From: Escherichia phage vB_EcolP_P433.1
Sequence record: MN384978.1
Length of the DNA: 43,865 nucleotides
Direction: 5' to 3' (one strand)
The notes beneath the pieces are model-generated. The model was given only the letters and a program-made list of their open reading frames with translations. It had not been told where the DNA came from and did not search any database. Shown in pieces: positions 1,821-43,802 of the stretch. The translations under genes were made by a program, and so were the position numbers. Position 1 is the stretch's first letter. Every line of letters starts with the position of its first letter.

Positions 1821-1987
1821 TGGTTAGCTCCTTCATCAAGTCACGTTTCTGGTTAACTGTATCGGTCCAACCTTCGTTAAGAAATCGGTGATACAAGGCT
1901 AACTCATCATTCGTAAGTAATTCGTTGTTACGAATCATATAGCATAACAGAGTGAAGAGAACGGACAGTTCCCGGTTATTTAATGTC
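1813..1987 (-). CDS. small hypothetical early protein (57 aa, MTLNNRELSVLFTLLCYMIRNNELL...)
   Basis: Not in the ORF track (below its length cutoff); ATG at 1987 preceded by GAGG RBS; stop overlaps the start of the next gene; lies downstream of the sigma70-type promoter at 2108-2136. Confidence 0.35.
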
Positions 1988-2107
1988 ATGGTGATACCTC
2001 ATTTAATAAGTAATACCACGGCATACACAGGTTACACTAAGCAAATTGTTAAAGAGCAAGGTAACTTAGTTACCTACCGTTTGGCTATGTTGCCTCCCGA
2101 TGGCTGT

Positions 2108-2136
2108 AATGTACTGCGAGTTATTGCCTGTGTCAA
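2108..2136 (-). promoter_or_regulatory. host sigma70-type early promoter (TTGACA-N17-TACATT)
   Basis: -35 TTGACA (rc of 2131-2136), 17-bp spacer, -10 TACATT (rc of 2108-2113); same hexamers as the promoter at 1559-1587. Confidence 0.5.
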
Positions 2137-2202
2137 CACTAAATTTCACTAAGATAGATTATTTATGTGATACCTGTCACAACTGCTAGATAATCCTAGG
2201 TT

Positions 2203-2218
2203 GTCTAACATGTTAGAC
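2203..2218. repeat. perfect 16-bp palindrome GTCTAACATGTTAGAC
   Basis: Read directly; A-for-C variant of the GTCTCAC-NN-GTGAGAC palindrome family found at six other sites. Confidence 0.5.
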
Positions 2219-2359
2219 TAAGGAAAAGCAATAGATACAAGGCTAGGATAGGTTAGGCGGGCTAGGCTTCTGGTGTCCCTCCTACTGCATCTTATTACTA
2301 TTCTCTTTCTTTAGCGGTCTACCGACCGCGACCTATTCGCATCTTATAGCGTAGCTATG

Positions 2360-2650
2360 CAATCACTAAGATAAGGCACTAAGGCTTACTAAGGCACACT
2401 ACTAAGTCACTACTAAGGTAAGAACTAAGGCTTTAACTAAGGCAACCCACTAAGGTTAGCATAAGCTATCCCTCAGGTTTATACCAAGGATATACGAGCG
2501 CGGTGAGTGTAGCGTAACGTAGTGTAGCGAAACGAACAGATATCCCACCAACGTCCACCCTGTCAATACCTCATAAACGCCCTGAATGGCCTCAGGAGTG
2601 CACTAAGAGGCTTCACTAAGGCAATCACCTTGTCCATCACTAAGCCAACC
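2360..2650. repeat. array of at least 11 ACTAAG(G) heptamer repeats (CCTTAGT on the coding strand) in two clusters
   Basis: Copies read at about 2365, 2377, 2389, 2402, 2413, 2424, 2438, 2452, 2601, 2616 and 2640 in a non-coding region; resembles the CCTAAAG heptamer arrays next to T7 terminal repeats. Confidence 0.6.
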
Positions 2651-2844
2651 CTAGGCCTTCCTAGGCCGCCTACCGCGTTCCACCTTGCTAGTACATAGGA
2701 AAGCCTGGGCCTGTACCAGTTCACTAGTACACTCCCAAGGCCACCCTATGGGGGACATCCCGGCGAGGGCGAGGGCGAGACACCTCACACACGCCTATAT
2801 CAAAATTTTGACTTTGGTTAATCCTTGTACAACACTAAGGTTTC

Positions 2845-2940
2845 CTACACTTCAGTCTTAAGTGCACAAGCTATTGCTACAGGAAGAATACAGAAACCTA
2901 CACATACACCTAAGAGGAAACTAATCAATTCTACTAACAT
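2845..2940 (-). CDS. possible small hydrophobic peptide (31 aa, MLVELISFLLGVCVGFCILPVAIACALKTEV)
   Basis: ATG at 2940 preceded by AGGAGG at 5-nt spacing; single predicted transmembrane helix; starts 14 nt after the upstream small ORF. Confidence 0.3.
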   Translation of the reverse strand: MLVELISFLLGVCVGFCILPVAIACALKTEV

Positions 2941-2954
2941 GTTACCTCCTTTGA

Positions 2955-3110
2955 TTACACTAAGTCGAATCCCTTGGGTTGCTTCAGGTAAGCCTGTACA
3001 GTTCCACCAAGAACCTTCTGGCTAGCCAGTGCAGACTCTTCAGTGTCATGTATCTTCCTGAGTACCTTACGTTTGAATGGGCCGACTCCATAAGTATGAA
3101 TCCAAATCAT
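2955..3110 (-). CDS. possible small protein (51 aa, MIWIHTYGVGPFKRKVLRK...)
   Basis: ATG at 3110 preceded by AGGAGG at 4-nt spacing; just downstream of the last tailspike gene. Confidence 0.3.
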   Translation of the reverse strand: MIWIHTYGVGPFKRKVLRKIHDTEESALASQKVLGGTVQAYLKQPKGFDLV

Positions 3111-3134
3111 CAAACCTCCTTAGTACTACATCAA

Positions 3135-3152
3135 GGCAGACCGAAGCCTGCC
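3135..3152 (-). terminator. stem-loop GGCAGGC-UUCG-GUCUGCC 10 nt after the tailspike stop
   Basis: 7-bp stem with UUCG tetraloop on the minus-strand transcript; no strong U-tract, so terminator function is uncertain. Confidence 0.3.
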
Positions 3153-3161
3153 ATTTGTGTA

Positions 3162-4619
3162 TTAGTAAACCAACTTAACCCTGTACGCCACAGCCCTGTT
3201 ACCAGAAGTGCCGACACGAGAAATACGAAGTGTACCCTCAGGGTTTATCTTTGTGCTCACTGGCTCAGCCGCAGTACCATCGATTGATGCAATGGCAACA
3301 ATAGTTGCAGCAGCGAGTGCCTTGGTTCTCAAGCCTACATCGACAAACGTAAGACCATCAGGGATGATAGCAACACCTTCCTGTAAGTCAGGGTGGGTAG
3401 GGCTGTCAACACTTGTTAGCTTACACTGTGGCGTAGTCAGGGTTACGCCTACTACATGAGAGCAGCCACGCAAATGCAGTGAGCTATTCCCCATGTTGCT
3501 AATTAGCATCACGTTATTTGTACGAGTACCCAAGAAGTCACAGTCAGTCGCAGTGATACCCTCCACAGAATCGATAAGGAGATCACCCTGCTGGGCTGAG
3601 TCAATATCATTGAACTGGAATGTTACATTGGTCAGACGCATGTTCTTAGGTGCATTAGCCCCACGCTTAGTGACATACAAACCAAAGTAGCGGCTGTCAG
3701 AGATACAAGTACCATTGATACGCAGGTTGTCACAAGCGCCAACCACTTCGATGCACGCTTCACTGCCAGAGTGGTTTGAAGAGTAGTAACCGAAGTCAAT
3801 CTTCACATCTTTGGCATCCTCCAGATACAGCGCCTGTCCACCTGCAAGGTCACTCATGCAGGAGTTGAACCACGTCCAGCGAGTCCCTATGATCTCAATA
3901 GCCTTACGATTCTTGGCGCTGTTGCCACATGAGTAGACTAGCTCATTTGTGAACATCAAACCCTCTGTGACACTAGAAACACCTGCAGACACGTCTTCAC
4001 TTGCATGGATAGCAGTATAACAATCAGAGTACGTGTTGTTGAAGAAGTGAGAGTTGATCTGTCCACCACCAGAGAATACCGCATAGTTGCTTGCTGCAAA
4101 GCGGTTATTCTGGATAGTAAGCTCAGCTGATGATTTACCTTTCTCACAGAAGACGCACGCATCGTAGAATGCAAACGAGTTGTCGCGCACAGTGATTAGC
4201 GGGCCTTCGATACGGATTGCCATAGTGTTGTTGCTATCCTTTCCGCCACCTACGAAGTTCAGACCTTCGATAACAGTGAATGCCGCACGAGGTATCAGAG
4301 TGGAGCCATTGTGTGTCTTCAATGTTGCACCGTACTTACCATCACTATATAGCCGGATGGCAGATGTAATTATAAGGTCAGTTACAATGTATGGCGTGTC
4401 TTTAGGCGGAACATAGACACCAGCACCCATACCTCCTGCGCGATATGCTGCTTTGATAGCTGCACGGAACGCAGGTGTGTCATCGGTAACACCATCACCC
4501 TTTGCACCAAAATCGGTGACACTAATCTGCTCACTAAGCTTCTCAGGGAGCAGTCTCAGAATAGCTGCATCGTATAGCGCCTTGTATTTCACGAAGGCAG
4601 CACCTAGCTTTTGAATCAT
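3162..4619 (-). CDS. tailspike, probable depolymerase with pectate-lyase-like right-handed beta-helix (485 aa)
   Basis: N-terminal motif ISVTDFGAKGDGVTDDTPAFRAAIKAA typical of beta-helix glycanases; AGGAGGG RBS before the ATG at 4619; position at the genome right end as in SP6/K1-5-type phages. Confidence 0.75.
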   Translation of the reverse strand: MIQKLGAAFVKYKALYDAAILRLLPEKLSEQISVTDFGAKGDGVTDDTPAFRAAIKAAYRAGGMGAGVYVPPKDTPYIVTDLIITSAIRLYSDGKYGATLKTHNGSTLIPRAAFTVIEGLNFVGGGKDSNNTMAIRIEGPLITVRDNSFAFYDACVFCEKGKSSAELTIQNNRFAASNYAVFSGGGQINSHFFNNTYSDCYTAIHASEDVSAGVSSVTEGLMFTNELVYSCGNSAKNRKAIEIIGTRWTWFNSCMSDLAGGQALYLEDAKDVKIDFGYYSSNHSGSEACIEVVGACDNLRINGTCISDSRYFGLYVTKRGANAPKNMRLTNVTFQFNDIDSAQQGDLLIDSVEGITATDCDFLGTRTNNVMLISNMGNSSLHLRGCSHVVGVTLTTPQCKLTSVDSPTHPDLQEGVAIIPDGLTFVDVGLRTKALAAATIVAIASIDGTAAEPVSTKINPEGTLRISRVGTSGNRAVAYRVKLVY

Positions 4620-6837: not shown

Positions 6838-6860
6838 CCCTCCTATAGTGTCCAGTAAAT
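6838..6860 (-). promoter_or_regulatory. phage RNAP promoter ATTTACTGGACACTATAGGAGGG
   Basis: Read as reverse complement on the plus strand; 23-nt match to the SP6-type core GACACTATAG; upstream of the first tailspike gene. Confidence 0.75.
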
Positions 6861-8547: not shown

Positions 8548-8570
8548 TCCTTCTATAGTGTCCAGTAATT
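8548..8570 (-). promoter_or_regulatory. phage RNAP promoter AATTACTGGACACTATAGAAGGA
   Basis: Read as reverse complement; overlaps the terL stop codon; followed by a 130-nt AT-rich leader. Confidence 0.7.
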
Positions 8571-9300
8571 AATAAGTCCTTGAAATCCTTGCAGAAATGG
8601 TGTTTCGATTGGAAGACTTACTCCGGTAATTTTGCCCATACACTCGCCGCTGCATCGCCACAGAAGTGTTGGTTACTTTTCGCTCAGTCCCGTAATCTCC
8701 ATAGAGCATGGCCCTGCGGAGGTGAGGTGTGTTCATAGCTTGGATGTAATCGCGCATCTCTTGCGCTCTGAGGCGATTAATCCGTGTAACCTCATCATAG
8801 TCTATCTGAGAAGTTAATTGCCGTATAGCGCCGTACAGAGCGTCTAAGCGGTCATCGTGCCGGAGGCTGTTCTTCTCGATCGTGATGTTCGACATTTGAT
8901 TGAAAAGGCTATAGGACATGCGTAGCTCAAGCGGATAGTTCTGTACTGACTCAAAGTCAGACTTGACCATCTCAGCATTGAAGATGAGCCTGTGGGCCGC
9001 CATGAGTGGCTCCAGTGTCTCAATGATACGCAACTCTTTCTGTCCTGTGGCGTAATCCTCTTCCAGCGTTACAGGCCACTCTCGTTCAAAGTACGGCTTA
9101 ATTACGGCCTCAAACGCGCCATGACCGAAGTTTTTCTCTATGAATACCTCTTTAACACCCGCCTGCTTTGCGGACTGCACAATGCGATTCAGGGACGATT
9201 CGCGGTATCCACCCGGTACACCGAAGCACTGATACACGTAAATGAATGTGCCGTGCAGGAAGACAATCGCTACACCCGTTTCGTCCCCGTTCTTACCTCC
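8569..9300 (-). CDS. terL: terminase large subunit, exon 2 (nuclease domain, 243 aa)
   Basis: Frame begins GGKNGDETGVAIVFLHG, i.e. mid-way through the conserved nuclease motif, with no ATG or RBS of its own; in frame with exon 1 if the 9301-10046 insert is spliced out. Confidence 0.7.
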   Translation of the reverse strand, partial: GGKNGDETGVAIVFLHGTFIYVYQCFGVPGGYRESSLNRIVQSAKQAGVKEVFIEKNFGHGAFEAVIKPYFEREWPVTLEEDYATGQKELRIIETLEPLMAAHRLIFNAEMVKSDFESVQNYPLELRMSYSLFNQMSNITIEKNSLRHDDRLDALYGAIRQLTSQIDYDEVTRINRLRAQEMRDYIQAMNTPHLRRAMLYGDYGTERKVTNTSVAMQRRVYGQNYRSKSSNRNTISARISRTY

Positions 9301-9826
9301 CGGTTTGAACGTGACGTGCGAGCCAACCCTTGTGGTGTTTACGCAAACCACGTGCCACCTTACGCATATTCTGAGGTGTTAGGTTGTGCTCTTTACAGAA
9401 GTCAGTAATGCAAGTTACAAGAAACTCTTCACCATCTGGAGAAGTGAATATGTAATCTTTGCCAGTACCTTTGTTGTAAGGTGTCATGCCTTTCTTGAAC
9501 TCAGTAGCAACAGACAAGTGCTGTCCTTTCTTTATTTCAGTGGCAATACTTATGCGTTCACCTTTCTCGATGTTACCTGCTTTGCGATAACCACCTTTAC
9601 CCTTATTCCAACCAATGTTGTCATGTGGGCGTAGCTTTTCTTCTAGTGCATAACACTCTTCTTTGCTACCAGTGAATAAGATAACGTACTCGCGGCCATC
9701 ACAAAGACGGCCTGCGCACTTGTGCTCTCTCATACGCTTCTTAATATCGGAGGTTACACCAATATAACCTTGCATTACATCAGTTTCACCAACAACACGA
9801 ATATGATAAACTTTATGCTCTGTCAT
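9293..9826 (-). CDS. GIY-YIG homing endonuclease (177 aa) encoded inside the terL intron
   Basis: KVYHIRVV...GYIGVT...RMREH GIY-YIG module at the N-terminus; NUMOD3-like repeats (ISIATEIKKGQHLSVATEFKKG); AGGGAG RBS before the ATG at 9826; stop codon lies 8 nt inside terL exon 2. Confidence 0.8.
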   Translation of the reverse strand: MTEHKVYHIRVVGETDVMQGYIGVTSDIKKRMREHKCAGRLCDGREYVILFTGSKEECYALEEKLRPHDNIGWNKGKGGYRKAGNIEKGERISIATEIKKGQHLSVATEFKKGMTPYNKGTGKDYIFTSPDGEEFLVTCITDFCKEHNLTPQNMRKVARGLRKHHKGWLARHVQTGR

Positions 9827-10046
9827 ATTTAACTCCCTTCAATTGTTACGTTAATTCGCTACTTTAACTTCCACTAGTCACCTAGTGGGTCGGACTATAT
9901 CTTAGGCTTGCGCCTCCCTCTGTTTCAGACCGCTTGGCCTTACAGTTAGTCTCTACACGTTCCTATCATTGCAACAGGCTTCGCTCGGTATTGTCTCAGT
10001 GAGAGTTCCACCGAATTAAGAGGGTTTTACGCTGGCAGAGGTGTTT
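9301..10046 (-). mobile_element. putative group I intron (746 nt) interrupting terL
   Basis: P1 pairing between exon end GCUGGU and internal guide GCCAGC; P10 pairing between exon-2 start GGAGG and CCUCU; terminal G at 9301; R-like AGAGACUAACUG (rc of 9943-9954) and S-like AAGAUAUAGUCC (rc of 9891-9902) core elements; splicing restores one 632-aa terminase frame. Confidence 0.65.
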
Positions 10047-11213
10047 ACCAGCAGGGTCAATATACATAATCTTACGGGTAACAGCACCCCATTCATACGG
10101 TCGGGCCACAGGCCGATACATGACATCTGTAGGCTTATTGCCATACTTCGGTGCGTCGCCAATGATGTTAATAGAATCATTGCTCCACGTAGGCATCACA
10201 GGAACTTCCTCTGTACCGAATGAAGTGAAGATGAGGTTGTTCAAGCGAAGTGGGTAGCGGTCAGCGTCCATCATGCGAGTGTTAAGCATAAACTGAAGCT
10301 GGAACTTAGCCGCACCCTGCGATATTTCCTTCTCGATCAGGACATCATCATCATACATTTCAGGTGCACAAGGAGCACCACTGTTACCGTCTAACCCATA
10401 ACCAGAGCGAAGTGCTGGGTTATCCTTCATATCCTGCACAATCATAGGCGCAAGGAAGTCACCATAGCATTGCTCCTGCTCCACTGAAGGGTAACGTGCA
10501 GTCCAGATACGAACAGAGTAACCACGAGCAGGTAAGTTATTGTAGATAGAGTTTACGTTCTGAGGTGTACCAAGGTAGATAATATCACCAAACTGGTTGA
10601 TAGATTCAAACTCTTTGGTCAATTCCTCAAGTAAGGCACGGCCTGCTGCTGTACGAGCATTCTGCATCGACTCAACGTCATCTGCAAGGATGATATCTGC
10701 ACGAGCACCCTGCATGCCTGCTTCGATTGAATAGCAGGATACAGAAGGTGACTTATCGCTACCACGTAAAGTGTAGTGAATCTCGAATGCCTTAACGGAT
10801 GCACGGTCTCCTGCGTAAATATCCGGTAACATAAACTCAAGGAAGTCTAAGCCACGAAAGATTTTAACTACCCAACCTGCGATTTCCTCTGCTCGCTTGG
10901 CGTTTTGGGATACAACCATTATACGCTTATGCGGTTCATGGATAATACGGAATACCGTATAGATTGCTGATAGTGTTGTCTTAGCGATACCACGAGGCGC
11001 TTCGATGAGTCGATACTTGTGTCCGTAGAATAGGAACTTCAAGATATCAGCCTGCATACGAATCAGATGAGGGTTGCCTGCAATCAAGTTATGAATAACT
11101 GTGTCTGCAAAGAGAAGCAAACCTTCCGCTGTATAGGGAAAGGTCTGCTGTAGTTCCTGTAGCATCTCCCATCTGGCAAGAGCCTCCGCTTGTGATTCTC
11201 TTGCCTTAGCCAT
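10047..11213 (-). CDS. terL: terminase large subunit, exon 1 (ATPase domain, 389 aa)
   Basis: Walker A PRGIAKTT and Walker B DIILADDVE; ends ...KIMYIDPAG at the proposed 5' splice site; the track ORF continues 16 codons into the intron before a stop at 9996. Confidence 0.75.
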
Positions 11214-11515
11214 TAATTATCCTCTTTTGTAAACTGAATGATCTTGCCACTAGATGCCTCTCGGATAGCCTTGAGACGCTTAGATAGCTTGGACTCTTCC
11301 TGCTGTGCAGCAGGTGTAGCTGTAATTCCATTATCAAGAACCCACTTACACATGGCACCAATGTCCTTACCGGATACTAAGTGTAGTGCTGCATCTGGGT
11401 CTTCTTCTATAGTGTCCAGTATTGCCTGTGCTTTCTTATTAAAGATCTTGGTAATAGCACCATGCAGAATGCCAACCTCATCTTCTGTAGCTGCATGTTT
11501 ATTGTGTACGCTCAC
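11213..11515 (-). CDS. terS: putative terminase small subunit (100 aa)
   Basis: Assigned by position between holin and terL as in T7 (gene 18); GTG start with AGGAGA RBS; no motif-level support. Confidence 0.5.
   Translation of the reverse strand: MSVHNKHAATEDEVGILHGAITKIFNKKAQAILDTIEEDPDAALHLVSGKDIGAMCKWVLDNGITATPAAQQEESKLSKRLKAIREASSGKIIQFTKEDN
11402..11424 (-). promoter_or_regulatory. weak phage-promoter-like sequence CAATACTGGACACTATAGAAGAA inside terS
   Basis: Matches the consensus from -13 to +6 but diverges at -17 to -15; lies inside the coding sequence. Confidence 0.4.
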
Positions 11516-38453: not shown

Positions 38454-40442
38454 TCAGAACTCACTTTCTTCATCGAAGCCGGTCTCTTCTATAGTGTCCG
38501 GTAAATCCGGTACTTCTTGTTGCCTTGCTTCCCCTGTATCAAATGACTTAGTACGGGCTTGTGGTTCCATTAAACGTCCGGTTTGAATGTCACCCTTAAG
38601 CATGACCTTGGTTCCAGTGTAGATACCTTGGTCGCGGTCTTTGACACATGAGATGTACGTGGTAGTCCTTTCATCAAGCGTTTCAGCTCTTGTATTACGC
38701 TCAATCCCCAAGGCGTAAGATGCCCAGAATCCGATAGCACCTGAGCCTCGGAAGTCAGAAAGGATAACTTCGCCACCTTCTTCGTGCTGGACTCGGTTTC
38801 CCGCAGGGCGAGTAAGGTGCGAGACAAGGAATATAGTAACTGGGTGTCTGTCTTTGATAGTACCAATCCGCTTGACGCATTCATCAAGTGCACCAACCTT
38901 CCCACCAAAAGCACGCTCATCTAATTTAATCCCCGTTAAGTTATCAATGATGATATTAGAAATACCCATAGCCTCAAACTCAAGGCAAGTCTGCTCTACC
39001 TTCTCCATTGAGTAGTCACCTTCTAGGTCAGCTACGAAGAGCTTCCCTGTATCAGCGACATAGTCAATGGCAGCATTAGCTTCTTCCTCAGTATAGTCGA
39101 ACACCTCGCGGTATCCATCTTCTTTCGGGTCGTTGGTTGGCGGTAGTTCAATACGCTTATCAATCCACTTGCCGATAAAAGCACGAGACACTTTGACCAT
39201 CGGGTCTTCTGTAGAAATAATGCCTACGGATTCACCGTGTTCTTCGATGAGGTGCTTAACCACTTCACGGAGGAACTCAGTCTTACCTACACCAGAGCCT
39301 GCGCCTACAATGATAAGCTGGTTCTTACGGATACCTAGCGTTACTTTGTTCAGCTTAGGCCAAGGCCATGACAGCCCTTGCTCTGGTCGTGCGGCCTTAA
39401 GTTTATCCCTTTGAGATGCAATAGATTTAATCTGGCTACCAAAGACTTCATCAGACGACTTGGCATTAAACCACGCATCTACAAATTCTTTAGCCTTGCC
39501 AGCCATCAATGCCTTATTGGCATCTTTGCACCCAGAAGGGTACTCAAGAATATAGGATTTGCCGGGAAAGAGGCGAGCCGCTTGTTGGTTCTGCTTCTGC
39601 CCTACTTCATCCCCATCGAAGCCCCAAATAATCTTCTTGAATTGGGCGATGTGTTCACGGTTCTGCACAATCTCTTCAAGGCAAGATTCACCCTTATTAA
39701 CAGACCATACGTGGTAGGGCTGGCCTTCCCACTTAGTGCCTTTGGCAGAATCAAGGAGCATCTGTTGTGCTGCTAGTGCATCAAGCTCTCCGCCTACAAT
39801 AAGCAAGCAATCCTTCCGTCTTCCCTTGTCTAACACGTGAGACAAAGTATTCATACCGAAAAGATCTTGCATACCAAAGAGCTTACCTAGGTGACCAAAC
39901 TTAAAGTCTTTAGGTAAGGTACGGCACTTAGCGCCTACTAGCTCACCTCTCTCGAAGCGTGGATAGTAATGCCGTGAGACTCTACCCTCTTCATCGTGTC
40001 CGACACGTACATCATACAATGCGCAAATGTCGCCGCGAATGTGTCGGGAAACAAGATTCTTACGCTTAAGCGTGAGGAACCATTCAACATCAAGTTTCCA
40101 CTCTGCTTCTTGGTCTGCCCTTTCTTGCTCATTCATGACCTCCCAACGGTCTTTCATACGCATACCACCAAGTGCGATGGCTCGCAGCTTAGGGTCGCTT
40201 ATCTTCCCTTCCCTCTCCATCTCTTTGAATTGAGAAGGTGTGTATTTTATGTTGCCAGTAATAGGCAACTCGGTGATCTCGATACCGCCGTCTGGCTTGT
40301 GGTAGTATGGCTTGCCATTATCATGGAAGTGACCACGGTTACAATAGCCAGCACCATCATCAAATATCATGAGATGGTTGCCGGATTTATCGTGTCCATT
40401 CTTCTGGCAAGCAGGGCACGGGATGTTATTAATAATAGCCAT
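38454..40442 (-). CDS. DNA primase-helicase, T7 gp4-like (662 aa)
   Basis: N-terminal zinc ribbon CPACQ...YCNRGHF; helicase Walker A GAGSGVGKTEF; acidic C-terminal tail ending in Phe (...TGFDEESEF) as in T7 gp4. Confidence 0.9.
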   Translation of the reverse strand: MAIINNIPCPACQKNGHDKSGNHLMIFDDGAGYCNRGHFHDNGKPYYHKPDGGIEITELPITGNIKYTPSQFKEMEREGKISDPKLRAIALGGMRMKDRWEVMNEQERADQEAEWKLDVEWFLTLKRKNLVSRHIRGDICALYDVRVGHDEEGRVSRHYYPRFERGELVGAKCRTLPKDFKFGHLGKLFGMQDLFGMNTLSHVLDKGRRKDCLLIVGGELDALAAQQMLLDSAKGTKWEGQPYHVWSVNKGESCLEEIVQNREHIAQFKKIIWGFDGDEVGQKQNQQAARLFPGKSYILEYPSGCKDANKALMAGKAKEFVDAWFNAKSSDEVFGSQIKSIASQRDKLKAARPEQGLSWPWPKLNKVTLGIRKNQLIIVGAGSGVGKTEFLREVVKHLIEEHGESVGIISTEDPMVKVSRAFIGKWIDKRIELPPTNDPKEDGYREVFDYTEEEANAAIDYVADTGKLFVADLEGDYSMEKVEQTCLEFEAMGISNIIIDNLTGIKLDERAFGGKVGALDECVKRIGTIKDRHPVTIFLVSHLTRPAGNRVQHEEGGEVILSDFRGSGAIGFWASYALGIERNTRAETLDERTTTYISCVKDRDQGIYTGTKVMLKGDIQTGRLMEPQARTKSFDTGEARQQEVPDLPDTIEETGFDEESEF
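38484..38506 (-). promoter_or_regulatory. phage RNAP promoter ATTTACCGGACACTATAGAAGAG inside the 3' end of the primase-helicase gene
   Basis: CCG sub-class at -12 to -10; lies within the last codons of the helicase ORF. Confidence 0.6.
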
Positions 40443-40660: not shown

Positions 40661-40663
40661 AAC

Positions 40664-40792
40664 TTAGAACTCCCACGCTGCGCGTTTAGATGCACGGTCA
40701 CGGACAGGTTTATTCAGCTTCTTGCCTTTCTTCTGCCCTTCTTCCATGTCAAAACGGTTAGCTTTACGGGTCATCTTCTCAAAGTTACGCAT
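40664..40792 (-). CDS. gp1.1-like small basic protein (42 aa, MRNFEKMTRKANRF...)
   Basis: Not in the ORF track; GGAGA RBS before the ATG at 40792; the N-terminus MRNFEKMT and the length match T7 gene 1.1 product as remembered. Confidence 0.55.
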   Translation of the reverse strand: MRNFEKMTRKANRFDMEEGQKKGKKLNKPVRDRASKRAAWEF

Positions 40793-40817
40793 GGTTAAAT
40801 CTCCAAAGTGAGTTAGT

Positions 40818-40840
40818 CTTATCTATACTGTCCGGTAAAT
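40818..40840 (-). promoter_or_regulatory. phage RNAP promoter variant ATTTACCGGACAGTATAGATAAG
   Basis: G instead of C at -5 and a divergent initiation region; preceded 5 bp upstream by the palindrome at 40846-40861. Confidence 0.55.
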
Positions 40841-40845
40841 ACGAA

Positions 40846-40861
40846 GTCTCACATGTGAGAC
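40846..40861. repeat. inverted repeat GTCTCAC-AT-GTGAGAC
   Basis: Read directly; abuts the upstream edge of the promoter at 40818-40840. Confidence 0.6.
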
Positions 40862-41004
40862 AACCTAGGTCTGCCCTTCCTCTAAGTAGTAATAATAGGA
40901 AGGAAGAAGGTAATAGGTATTCCTAGGTAAACCTATATAACCTTTAATACCTATTATTTCCTTTTATATCCTTATCTTCCCTCCTCTTTCCCATCTCCGA
41001 TGGT

Positions 41005-41027
41005 TTCTCCTATAGTGTCCGGTAAAT
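41005..41027 (-). promoter_or_regulatory. phage RNAP promoter ATTTACCGGACACTATAGGAGAA
   Basis: First phage promoter downstream of the polymerase gene; CCG sub-class. Confidence 0.7.
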
Positions 41028-41031
41028 ATGA

Positions 41032-41047
41032 GTCTCACATGTGAGAC
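41032..41047. repeat. inverted repeat GTCTCAC-AT-GTGAGAC
   Basis: Read directly; about 75 nt after the polymerase stop and 4 bp upstream of the promoter at 41005-41027. Confidence 0.6.
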
Positions 41048-41119
41048 ACTTTATGTTAATGAAATGTTACAGGTAGTGGGTAAAGAAAAGGCCACTCCCG
41101 AAGGAATGGCCTATCAATA

Positions 41120-43802
41120 TTATGCAAAGCAATAGTCAGAAACTAAGATCTCTTCAAGGTTAAACTCCCCTTGCTCCGGCACTTGGATACCAGTATCCAC
41201 TAACCAGCGCTCTTCGTGCTCATCTAACAGGCTTTGCAGGGCATTACGTCCTTGGTACATTTTCACCATTTCTGCCCTTAAGCTATCCCGCAGGTCTGCG
41301 GTGCGGCCTGCATGAGTGCCAAAAGAGTCATGAATAACTGCAATGGATGTTATACCTTTATCCACGAGGTCACATACAGTCAGGATAAGGTGGCTAGCAT
41401 CATGACCATGAACAAAATTAGGAGCCGCTGCACCCATCATCGCCGTTTCATCAACTACGTCTGTTTCAATCTGGAGACTCATCTTGATTTCACCCATCAA
41501 GCAAGTTGATACGCGAAGCATATCGGTTGCCATTATCTTTTGTTGCAAGATGAAGCCAGTAGGCAAGGTGTATTCTAACCCTTCATTTCTTTTAGCTGCG
41601 AATCGTGCTAGTTGGCGAATCATTCTCATCGCCACTATAGGTGCTTTAACAACCTCAGAGATTGAAGGCCAGATTAAAGCCGTCATATAATTATAGGCCG
41701 CACCAGTAGTTAAGTAGTCTTTGCGGTCATTATCAAAAGGGTGCACAGGATTCGCCGTCCGCCCTTCTGCAATAGCTCTTTGCGCCTCTTTTTCTTCCAA
41801 ATCAACGATATAATCAATCACAGACTCACGGCAGGTTAAGCGGGTGGAACCATAAGGCAAGGTCATTACGGGCTTTTTGGTTAAGCCACGAGTGATACCT
41901 ATCATATCCCATGCGCTAGCCATGCTACGCAGTTCTGCTCCTGTAAGTGTCACGCTTCCAGAGGTGAAAGTCTCTGCATCATCTGCATTCATGTAAGCGT
42001 AATTCTTCTGGATAACCACTTGCGCCACCGCCCCATAAATATCTTGCGGTGAGTCTGACGGCTTAAGGTTTACCGCCTTAGCGCCTACTTCATCACGTAG
42101 CATCGCACTATAATGCTGAATACCAGAACAACTACCGTCTTGGTGTACTGGTAAGTGCGTCATGAATTGGTCTTGTGTACCTTCATCCAAAGCATCAAGG
42201 TAACGAGCATACTCAAAGCACCACGCAAGGAATCCATAAGGAGAATCAGCATTTACCCATTGAGTAAAAGTCAGCGGGTCGGCTGCAATATCGCGGCACA
42301 TATCTTGAAATTCGCCATCCAGCACATTAGCGGTGCGCACGTCAAAAGTTTTCTTATCCCAACCCCAGTTATTCGCCCCGTTCACCAAAAACCACTTAAG
42401 CGCCTCAGCGCTGTTTATAGTCTGCCCTTCGGTAAACCGTAGTAGCGCCTTGCCTAAGTCATTTGATTGCGGCGAGAGTGTGCTAGATTGCGCGTATACA
42501 CGGCTGCGGCTGTCCAGTGCATATACGAAGTAAATAGCGTTGAAGTGGCTGTATTTACGGGCCTGCCCGACCATGCGAACGGTTGCCGCCGATTTACTGC
42601 CGCGCTTAGTCTCTGCGGTGTACAGCTTGGTGCATTCACCTTTCCAGTTGATAAATGCGTGCCATTGTTCTGGGGTTAGCATTTCTTTTAGTTCACGACC
42701 GCGCAGGTGTTGGAACTCAAGAGGAACAGGATTAGCGGGCTTGTTCTCCCGGTCGATGAGTGGTTTAAAGGAGGGCACACCATAACCAAGATCGAGGCGG
42801 ATAACATCTTCAACAACCTGCAACACTTCCTTATTAACCTGCCACTTGGTCGCCTGCAAAGCGTTAACAGCCTTGTAAACCGCTGGCATTTGCTTTTTGG
42901 TTAGCTTGCGGACGTGCTCGCGGTTGCCTTTAACCAGACGGATACGGCTTGCCACTTTCTCAGTGTGAAAACCTCCATTAAAAGGGGACACCCAAGGGCG
43001 CGGAGGGATAACGCAAGGTGCATAGGCTGGACTAAGCTGCGCTACGTGCTCTTTGAAGGCCGTTATCCACTCCCCAACGTGTTCACTAGTCTGTAAGTAG
43101 TAAACGCCATGTTTGCCGCCGTTAGTGCGCAAGGTGCGGAGGAAAACAGGCTGCCCGTTGAAGAATACACTATTTTCCAAGATTTCTAGCAAGGTCATGC
43201 CTATTTGCAGCAAGGTATCCTTAGGCCATGCCTCCCAGCGGGAGAAATCAGCGTCACGGTCAGATACAGACTTCTCAGCCACAACTGCTACGTTGTGCGC
43301 ATGGCGATAGGATTTAGTCTTGCTTGCCTTAAGTGACTTCTTAACCTTCTCGAAGTATTTGGCGGCGTGACCTTCCAGCTTGCTAAATCGCACTTGGTCT
43401 TCAATGCGGTCAGCTACATTCATGGCTATGGCTTGCAAGGTTACATCTGTGTTCAACATATCCATGACAATCTTCATCGTGATATAGGCTGCCACTTCAT
43501 TTTCTACGCAGTTAATGAAAGCTAATGCACGAGGTGCACGGCCTCTTTTACCTTCATACTCTTCCTTGTATGCCTGAATACCTTCAGCCATTGGCGCGAT
43601 TAACTCGGATAATAAGCGGCGATTCCAAGCCGTATCCGATTCGTTACCGGATGCAATTTGGCGCTGTTGGTCTGCTTCAAAGCGACGAATACCGCCGTTA
43701 AACATTTCTTCTTCAAGCTGAAGCTGGATAGCGTGTAGGTCTAATACCGCCGTTAAACATTTCTTCTTCAAGCTGAAGCTGGATAGCGTGTAGGTCTTGC
43801 AT
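41120..43802 (-). CDS. single-subunit DNA-dependent RNA polymerase, SP6-type; 5' end disrupted by a 55-bp tandem duplication
   Basis: Near-identity over long stretches to SP6 RNA polymerase as remembered (e.g. [49 protein letters not shown]-terminus ...DYCFA). The RBS-preceded ATG at 43802 encodes [20 protein letters not shown] and then frameshifts; the intact frame 41120-43771 begins only at a TTG. Confidence 0.85.
43688..43797. repeat. perfect direct tandem duplication, 2 x 55 bp (43688-43742 and 43743-43797)
   Basis: Both units read AATACCGCCGTTAAACATTTCTTCTTCAAGCTGAAGCTGGATAGCGTGTAGGTCT; the bases flanking each unit differ, so the repeat is exactly 55 bp. Confidence 0.9.

Follow-up and report, generated by a model that had tools for sequence, protein, structure and literature searches.

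Heptamer arrays at the predicted concatemer junction of the SP6/K1-5-like phage vB_EcolP_P433.1

Introduction

The genome record of Escherichia phage vB_EcolP_P433.1 (MN384978.1), the 43,865 nucleotides of which are here called the window, contains at positions 2360-2650 a conspicuous accumulation of one short motif, ACTAAG(G), and the locus raises the question of what these copies mark and by what they might be read. A preliminary description made from the letters alone had proposed that the physical ends and the terminal repeat of the virion DNA probably lie in or beside the array. As is outlined below, comparison with related phages indicates that the ACTAAG arrays very probably mark the concatemer junction of an SP6/K1-5-like phage, and terminal repeats of the relatives with both ends on record do map by homology to 2541-2780, in agreement with that proposal.

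Identity and assembly state of the record

Judged from its sequence, P433.1 is an SP6/K1-5-like podophage (Molineuxvirinae, Vectrevirus-like). All large open reading frames of the record are on the minus strand, and the junction region is 76-87% identical to Vectrevirus genomes (K1-5, K1E, VEc3, CrRp3, and others). Over 20 kb of structural genes, identity to the nearest records is only about 84%, which makes P433.1 a new relative, at species level, within the SP6/K1-5 group.

At its first codons the RNA polymerase gene carries an exact tandem duplication of 55 bp (43688-43742/43743-43797) that shifts the reading frame; when one of the two copies is deleted, an SP6-like N-terminus of the polymerase is regained. 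The duplication is probably the untrimmed k=55 overlap of an assembly that was circularised and later rotated, and the unit length would then be 43,810. A check of the whole sequence revealed that the predicted terminal-repeat sequence is present once in the record. A single repeat copy together with a 55-bp closure overlap agrees with the self-closure of an assembly from a phage that has short direct terminal repeats, and the record thus appears to be a complete short-read assembly, circularly permuted, with the two copies of the terminal repeat collapsed into one.

Number, position, and strand of the heptamers

An exact-match scan of MN384978.1 (43,865 nt) yielded 11 copies of ACTAAG on the plus strand within 2360-2650. 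They form two clusters, to which degenerate and outlying copies can be added:

2365, 2378, 2388, 2401, 2412, 2424, 2436, 2449, plus strand: starts of the 8 exact ACTAAG copies of cluster A
2602, 2615, 2639, plus strand: starts of the 3 exact ACTAAG copies of cluster B
2365-2455, minus strand: cluster A read in genome orientation, 8 x (C)CTTAGT, 87-176 nt inside the left unique end
2602-2645, minus strand: cluster B read in genome orientation, 3 x CTTAGT within the predicted terminal repeat, the inner edge of which is 61-103 nt downstream
2483-2489 and 2460-2466, minus strand: two degenerate heptamers, CCTTGGT and GCTTATG, aligned to CCTTAGG/GCTTAGG of K1-5
2036-2041, 2148-2153, and 2217-2222, minus strand: extra CTTAGT copies near the early host-type promoter, at positions conserved in K1-5 and SP6
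2834-2839 and 2959-2964, minus strand: 2 exact CTTAGT copies on the right-unique side, with CTTAGG/CTTAAG variants within 185 nt

The preliminary description had counted at least 11 copies in two clusters separated by about 140 bp, which agrees with the 8 + 3 exact copies and the 147 nt found between clusters A and B. In plus-strand order the 8 copies of cluster A are spaced by 13, 10, 13, 11, 12, 12, and 13 nt, and 7 of the 11 copies within 2360-2650 are directly followed by G. Since the minus strand encodes all genes, the motif reads (C)CTTAGT(G/A) in genome orientation. In the left unique end the array comprises 8 exact and 2 degenerate heptamers (2365-2489), 52-176 nt downstream of the inner edge of the repeat.

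The array region, with 11 copies, is the 300-nt window of highest ACTAAG density in the whole sequence. Outside 1900-3000 the background on the plus strand is 0.35 copies per kb, from which 0.10 copies are expected in 291 nt; the 11 copies observed correspond to a Poisson P of about 3e-19, which is an approximately 100-fold enrichment confined to one strand. Outside 1900-3000 the two strands carry 15 copies each, the expectation from composition being about 11. Tandem Repeats Finder reports only weak, partial arrays at the locus, the reason being that a core of 6-7 nt sits among unrelated spacers of 4-7 nt. The array consists of conserved heptamers with unrelated spacers rather than of a tandem duplication.

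The surroundings of the array had been described as the only long non-coding stretch (about 2150-3100), lying between the last tailspike gene and the first host-type promoter. The region from about 1990 to 2954 is indeed the longest stretch free of minus-strand open reading frames, but a second one of 459 nt exists at 40661-41119, and the promoter lies where it had been placed, but two small open reading frames intervene between the tailspike gene and the repeat:

3162-4619: tailspike gene, upstream of both small open reading frames and of the repeat
2955-3113, minus strand: small conserved open reading frame of 52 aa (phrog_3955), matching K1-5 gene 48
2845-2940, minus strand: small conserved open reading frame for a hydrophobic peptide of 31 aa, MLVELISFLLGVCVGFCILPVAIACALKTEV, at the position of K1-5 gene 49/SP6 gp52
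2136-2108, minus strand: host-type promoter TTGACA-17-TACATT, from the promoter scan

Relatives have a CTTAGTG heptamer near the ribosome-binding site of the open reading frames 2845-2940 and 2955-3113. The second-longest ORF-free stretch (40661-41119) extends from the RNA polymerase gene (41120-43771) to the open reading frame 38454-40442, which is primase/helicase-sized, and it contains a phage promoter core at 41010-41017; by analogy with T7, the primary replication origin might be located in this gap.

Predicted terminal repeat and genome ends

By homology with K1-5, SP6, and five other records that contain both genome ends, the repeat was placed at approximately 2541-2780:

2541-2780, minus strand: predicted direct terminal repeat of 240 bp, homologous to the repeats of K1-5, SP6, Mt1B1_P10, mutPK1A2, and P3a

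Homology transfer puts the left end at 2780 (TCTCGCC...) and the right end at 2541. Comparison of the record ends gave exact repeat lengths of 234 bp for K1-5 (AY370674), 174 bp for SP6, and 160 bp for T7, and annotated lengths are 267 bp for Mt1B1_P10, 286 bp for mutPK1A2, and 283/284 bp for Raoultella P3a. The records of 6 relatives start at the equivalent of P433.1 2778-2780, and TCTC, which is found in P433.1 at 2780, likewise opens the left ends of T7, T3, K1F, and SP6. The left-end junction of P433.1 falls at 2781/2780, between ...GTGTGAGGTG and TCTCGCCC, after a conserved junction block. In every relative with mapped ends, short exact repeats occupy this same locus.

The inner boundary of the repeat falls between clusters A and B, cluster B being inside the repeat, and the two clusters thus bracket what becomes the right end of the virion DNA. 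It should be noted that the exact ends are less certain than their location. In the case of UAB_Phi78, the ends were mapped by Bal31 digestion and run-off sequencing (PMC4837284), and, relative to the SP6 equivalents, its repeat of 179/180 bp has its start 16 nt and its end 10 nt earlier. Either there is a real difference in the cut site between these close relatives or one of the mappings is imprecise. The exact ends in P433.1 are, because of this offset of 10-16 nt, uncertain at about that scale.

Elements around the junction

Several conserved elements surround the two boundaries of the predicted repeat and follow the array:

2535-2541, minus strand: ATCTGTT, lying across the inner edge of the repeat; class II pause/termination signal of T7-type RNA polymerases
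2781-2830, minus strand: conserved right-unique block before the left-end cut (AACCAAAGTCAAAATTTTGATATAGGCGTGTGTGAGGTG), nearly invariant in 9 relatives
2744-2754, minus strand: palindrome CCCCCATAGGG, 27-37 nt from the left end, common to T7 (CCCCCATAGGGGG) and SP6
2314-2364, minus strand: post-array module directly after the last heptamer, consisting of GATTGC, hairpin 1, AAGATGC-NNN-TAGGT, and hairpin 2
2346-2358, minus strand: hairpin 1, ATAGC/GCTAT
2314-2329, minus strand: hairpin 2, GCGGTC/GACCGC

The pause/termination signal ATCTGTT has been described for T7-type polymerases (bioRxiv 10.1101/2021.01.11.426313; PMC9157156). In K1-5 (234), SP6 (174), T7 (160/161), and T3 (231/232) it is found at or next to the repeat end, and it likewise adjoins the repeat end in Mt1B1_P10, mutPK1A2, and P3a. 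In K1F, the repeat of which is 179 bp long (PMC4925675), ATCTGTA follows at 180 right after the repeat, and in UAB_Phi78 the annotated repeat end is 10 nt off ATCTGTT. The most conserved parts of the junction are the 50 nt before the left end (2781-2830), for which the relatives include SP6, Klebsiella K44PH129C1, and Proteus PM93, and the 40 nt before ATCTGTT. In the region as a whole, no non-coding sequence is better conserved than these blocks at the two repeat boundaries, whereas the middle of the repeat shows many indels in the alignment of the relatives.

The post-array module covaries. For hairpin 1 there are four compensatory alleles across the lineages, namely ATAGC(T)/(A)GCTAT, ACATGC/GCATGT, ACAAGC/GCTTGT, and ATATGC/GCATAT, and for hairpin 2 there are two, GCGGTC/GACCGC and GCTTGC/GCAAGC, while the linker AAGATGC-NNN-TAGGT is invariant. 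The module may form a structure in DNA or RNA, or it may be a palindromic site for a protein. A scan of IMG/VR with the hairpin-linker motif returned mostly chance matches, and only those with upstream CTTAGT arrays were kept; Rfam, searched over 1900-3200 at a permissive threshold, gave no match.

Some further observations were made in this region. Two copies of a direct repeat, ATAAGATGC(G/A)(A)(A/G)TAGG, lie about 50 nt apart on the minus strand (2332-2347 and 2281-2295); one copy is the linker of the hairpin module, and SP6 has the repeat as well. Just after ATCTGTT, at 2506-2534, there is a 15-nt direct repeat (AGTGTAGCG-A/T-AACG, plus strand), in a stretch with indels and a varying repeat number among the relatives. 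The sequence TTGACA(G), inside the repeat at 2561-2566 on the minus strand and 25 nt upstream of ATCTGTT, was found in every SP6-like relative examined and is absent in T7. It was considered as the start of a sigma-70 promoter (2566-2561) and rejected: the best candidates for the -10 element, ATATCT and TATCTG, miss key positions, and the promoter scan was negative.

Conservation of heptamer cores and spacers

The region from ATCTGTT to the hairpins was aligned for 15 phages, of which 12 are Vectrevirus-like (P433.1 included), 2 belong to Zindervirus, and 1 is an unclassified Klebsiella phage of the Molineuxvirinae. Across this set the 48 columns of the CTTAGT cores of P433.1 have a mean pairwise identity of 0.94, and 37 of the 48 are invariant; the corresponding values for the 42 spacer columns are 0.61 and 3 of 42 (Fisher P 5e-12 versus the cores). 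Because both classes of columns come from one alignment, the contrast is controlled for relatedness. The spacing of the heptamers, in genome orientation 13, 12, 12, 11, 13, 10, and 13 nt, is preserved across the aligned phages, and the consensus of the array is (T/A)(T/A)(A/G)C-CTTAGT-(G/A).

An array after ATCTGTT is also present in Proteus phage PM93 (Acadevirus), SP6, UAB_Phi78, and a Klebsiella phage, and the copies of cluster B are conserved in the Vectrevirus relatives. Invariant cores among drifting spacers are the pattern of a sequence-specific protein-binding array, and we infer that the heptamer cores would be read by a sequence-specific protein.

Comparison with SP6, K1-5, T7, and other phages

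The closest counterpart of the array is found in K1-5 (AY370674), which has the same CTTAGT core on the same strand in the same copy number, with 3 copies inside the repeat and 8 exact ones after it, at offsets from ATCTGTT of +88 to +172 compared with +87 to +171 in P433.1. Other Vectrevirus genomes likewise agree with P433.1 in the number, positions, and spacing of the copies of cluster A. SP6 (NC_004831) has the same core and strand with 7 copies after the repeat and 1 inside. Both phages share with P433.1 the flanking junction blocks and the downstream hairpin module, and they differ from it in the spacers and by indels in the middle of the repeat, in the length of the repeat (240 bp predicted versus 234 in K1-5 and 174 in SP6), and, in the case of K1-5, in the leading degenerate copies (CTTAGG instead of CCTTGGT/GCTTATG). 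The element is the same as that in K1-5 and SP6, the sequences of which have been public since about 2004, and is the SP6-group variant of the T7 arrays.

The preliminary description had referred to arrays of CCTAAAG next to the terminal repeats of T7, and these are indeed there: CCTAAAG is found at 17, 41, and 60 inside the 160-bp repeat, ATCTGTT at 161, and the array from 175, i.e., beginning 15 nt past the repeat with a spacing of about 13 nt. The T7 heptamers are said to have been described by Dunn and Studier in 1983 as a repeat series left and right. P433.1 resembles T7 in the TCTC left end, in a palindrome about 30 nt in (CCCCATAGGG), in three heptamers inside the repeat, in ATCTGTT at the repeat end, and in a one-strand array with a spacing of 12-13 nt that precedes the early host promoters within the left unique end. 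The differences are that the heptamer is CCTTAGT rather than CCTAAAG, that the array starts 52-87 nt after ATCTGTT rather than 8 nt, that the heptamers within the repeat lie in its inner half rather than in its outer third, and that P433.1, unlike T7, has no phage promoter of the phiOL type after the array. The right-side array of T7 has only a weak counterpart in P433.1 (2 exact copies). Heptamers of the CCTAAAG/CTTAAAG type are common to T3 and T7, and in T3 they flank the 231-bp terminal repeat. In the first 1 kb of phiKMV neither ATCTGTT nor an array of the P433.1 type was found, which shows that this junction architecture is not universal in the Autographiviridae.

A similar arrangement may be seen in an unrelated phage. 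The pac site of phage P1 reportedly consists, according to Sternberg and Coulby, of hexamer repeats on both sides of the terminase cut, and the likeness is that two clusters of one short motif bracket the position of terminase cleavage. This is an analogy only, P1 belonging to an unrelated family, with an unrelated motif, a site regulated by methylation, and headful packaging.

Promoters reading towards the junction and terminase genes

Phage promoters of the SP6 type read towards the junction, the last core being at 6843-6850 on the minus strand. Between this promoter and 2541 no terminator above chance was found, and the promoter scan revealed no dedicated phiOR-like promoter adjoining the junction. 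The possibility that the heptamer is the upstream half of an SP6-type promoter (ATTTAG-G/T-T...) was discarded, there being no CACTATAG core after any copy; this reading was also rejected on the ground that the T7 heptamer is unlike the T7 promoter.

The genes of the packaging enzyme are also on the minus strand:

11213-11515, minus strand: gene for the terminase small subunit, 100 aa (phrog_891, E 9e-26)
9996-11213, minus strand: N-terminal part of the large terminase (phrog_17672, E 6e-245)
8569-9351, minus strand: C-terminal part of the large terminase (phrog_15524, E 3e-127)

Between the two halves of the large terminase an open reading frame for an HNH endonuclease is located (9293-9826, minus strand), and Rfam finds a group I intron at 9871-10078 (RF00028, 63.6 bits, E 6e-14). 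The large terminase gene thus looks as if it were split by a group I intron that carries a homing endonuclease. According to PMC9860248, pacB in the concatemer is recognised by gp18, a small terminase.

Possible function and alternative explanations

What the heptamers would do at this place can be outlined as follows. ATCTGTT at the inner edge of the repeat would correspond to the position at which T7 RNA polymerase stalls before the concatemer is processed, and the heptamers would be conserved cis-elements on both sides of this edge. The packaging and processing machinery might land, as at the pac site of P1, on the repeated heptamers flanking the right-end cut. The small terminase (ORF 11213-11515) would be the candidate reader. 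To this explanation as a whole, i.e., junction, arrays, and a role as packaging site, we assign a probability of roughly 0.75, in which most of the weight lies on location and identity. That the terminase itself binds the heptamers specifically is a tentative proposal, which we would regard as somewhat doubtful. T3 and T7 reportedly package their own DNAs specifically and discriminate each other's, and yet they share the heptamers, which argues against the heptamers being the specificity determinant of the terminase (pacB). In addition, the right-unique side has only 2 exact copies, and the interval of about 12 nt differs from a helical turn, so that a simple array bound on one face of the helix is not obvious. 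A function of the heptamers in T7 or in SP6-like phages is not stated in the accessible literature, and a literature search for CCTAAAG or CCTTAGT gave only unrelated primer matches.

Although the packaging reading is preferred, there are other roles for a sequence-specific array at the left end that deserve consideration. The heptamers might be elements of left-end replication: they could serve for priming, or as a secondary origin through which the last lagging-strand primer is set near the repeat, in which case single-stranded repeat tails would form and then anneal into concatemers. The asymmetric position of the array just inside the left end, where it adjoins the conserved double hairpin, would suit such a role, and in T7 the corresponding region holds a secondary origin near phiOL, which is annotated at 405. 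Several plus-strand copies are also followed by GCA (ACTAAGGCA), which we take to be the recognition triplet of the SP6 primase; however, the invariant part is CTTAGT and not the flanking GCA, G being found two positions before the core in only 38% of the copies. Moreover, three copies are within the repeat and others on the right-unique side, where a role in replication fits less, and there is no phage promoter nearby although origins of the T7 type need one. A replicative function is for these reasons considered unlikely. Slightly less likely still is a function in infection, in which the heptamers would bind an ejected internal virion protein or a host factor at the leading left end, and the bound factor would hold, protect, or meter this end until host RNA polymerase engages the early promoter. 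In favour of it, the array is situated after the entering end (2780) and before the first host promoter (2136-2108), the copies at 2217, 2148, and 2036 reach up to and around this promoter at conserved positions, and copies of the CTTAAAG type are present at the early promoters of T7.

Two further explanations would take away from the array its function or its connection with the genome ends. The repeats might have arisen by chance or by slippage or be part of a small coding gene, and indeed a CDS for a "hypothetical protein" covers the repeat or array in relatives (CrRp3_cds6, Mt1B1_P10, UAB78_001), and P433.1 has an open reading frame of 53 aa with a GTG start at 2563-2724. However, the alignment of the repeat shows indels of many lengths, the curated records of K1-5 and SP6 have no gene at this locus, Tandem Repeats Finder sees no simple tandem array, the enrichment is roughly 100-fold and limited to one strand, and the cores are invariant against diverging spacers across four genera-level lineages. 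The pattern of conservation largely refutes this explanation, which of all those considered is the least probable. Hardly more probable is that the array is not at the ends of P433.1, the termini being elsewhere or the genome being a permuted, terminally redundant headful genome. The record itself, from a circularised assembly, holds no information on physical ends, but the terminase is of the T7/SP6 type, the relatives with mapped ends all have their short exact repeats at this locus, and non-coding conservation in the region is highest in the blocks at the repeat boundaries.

It is also possible, though we regard it as less likely than not, that the CTTAGT copies on either side of the inner edge of the repeat and the covarying double hairpin (2314-2364) form a single cis-acting left-end module of the Molineuxvirinae. 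The heptamers of such a module would be a two-sided landing site around the right-end cut for the small terminase or another phage protein, and the hairpins would act, as structured DNA or RNA, to signal duplication of the repeat or left-end replication. An experimental dissection of a left-end module of the Molineuxvirinae was not found in the literature searched.

Significance

The findings have practical consequences for annotation. The genome should be oriented and cut at about 2780 on the minus strand and a second copy of the 240-bp repeat be added at the right end, and the "hypothetical proteins" annotated across the junction region in database records are very probably not genes. A probable assembly artefact that breaks the RNA polymerase gene has also been exposed. 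To a T7 specialist the finding will be unsurprising, the arrays being an ordinary feature of the SP6/K1-5 group. The contrast between conserved cores and free spacers over several genera speaks clearly for the heptamers being read by a protein, and the arrays are a well-defined target for experiments on terminase binding and DNA packaging.
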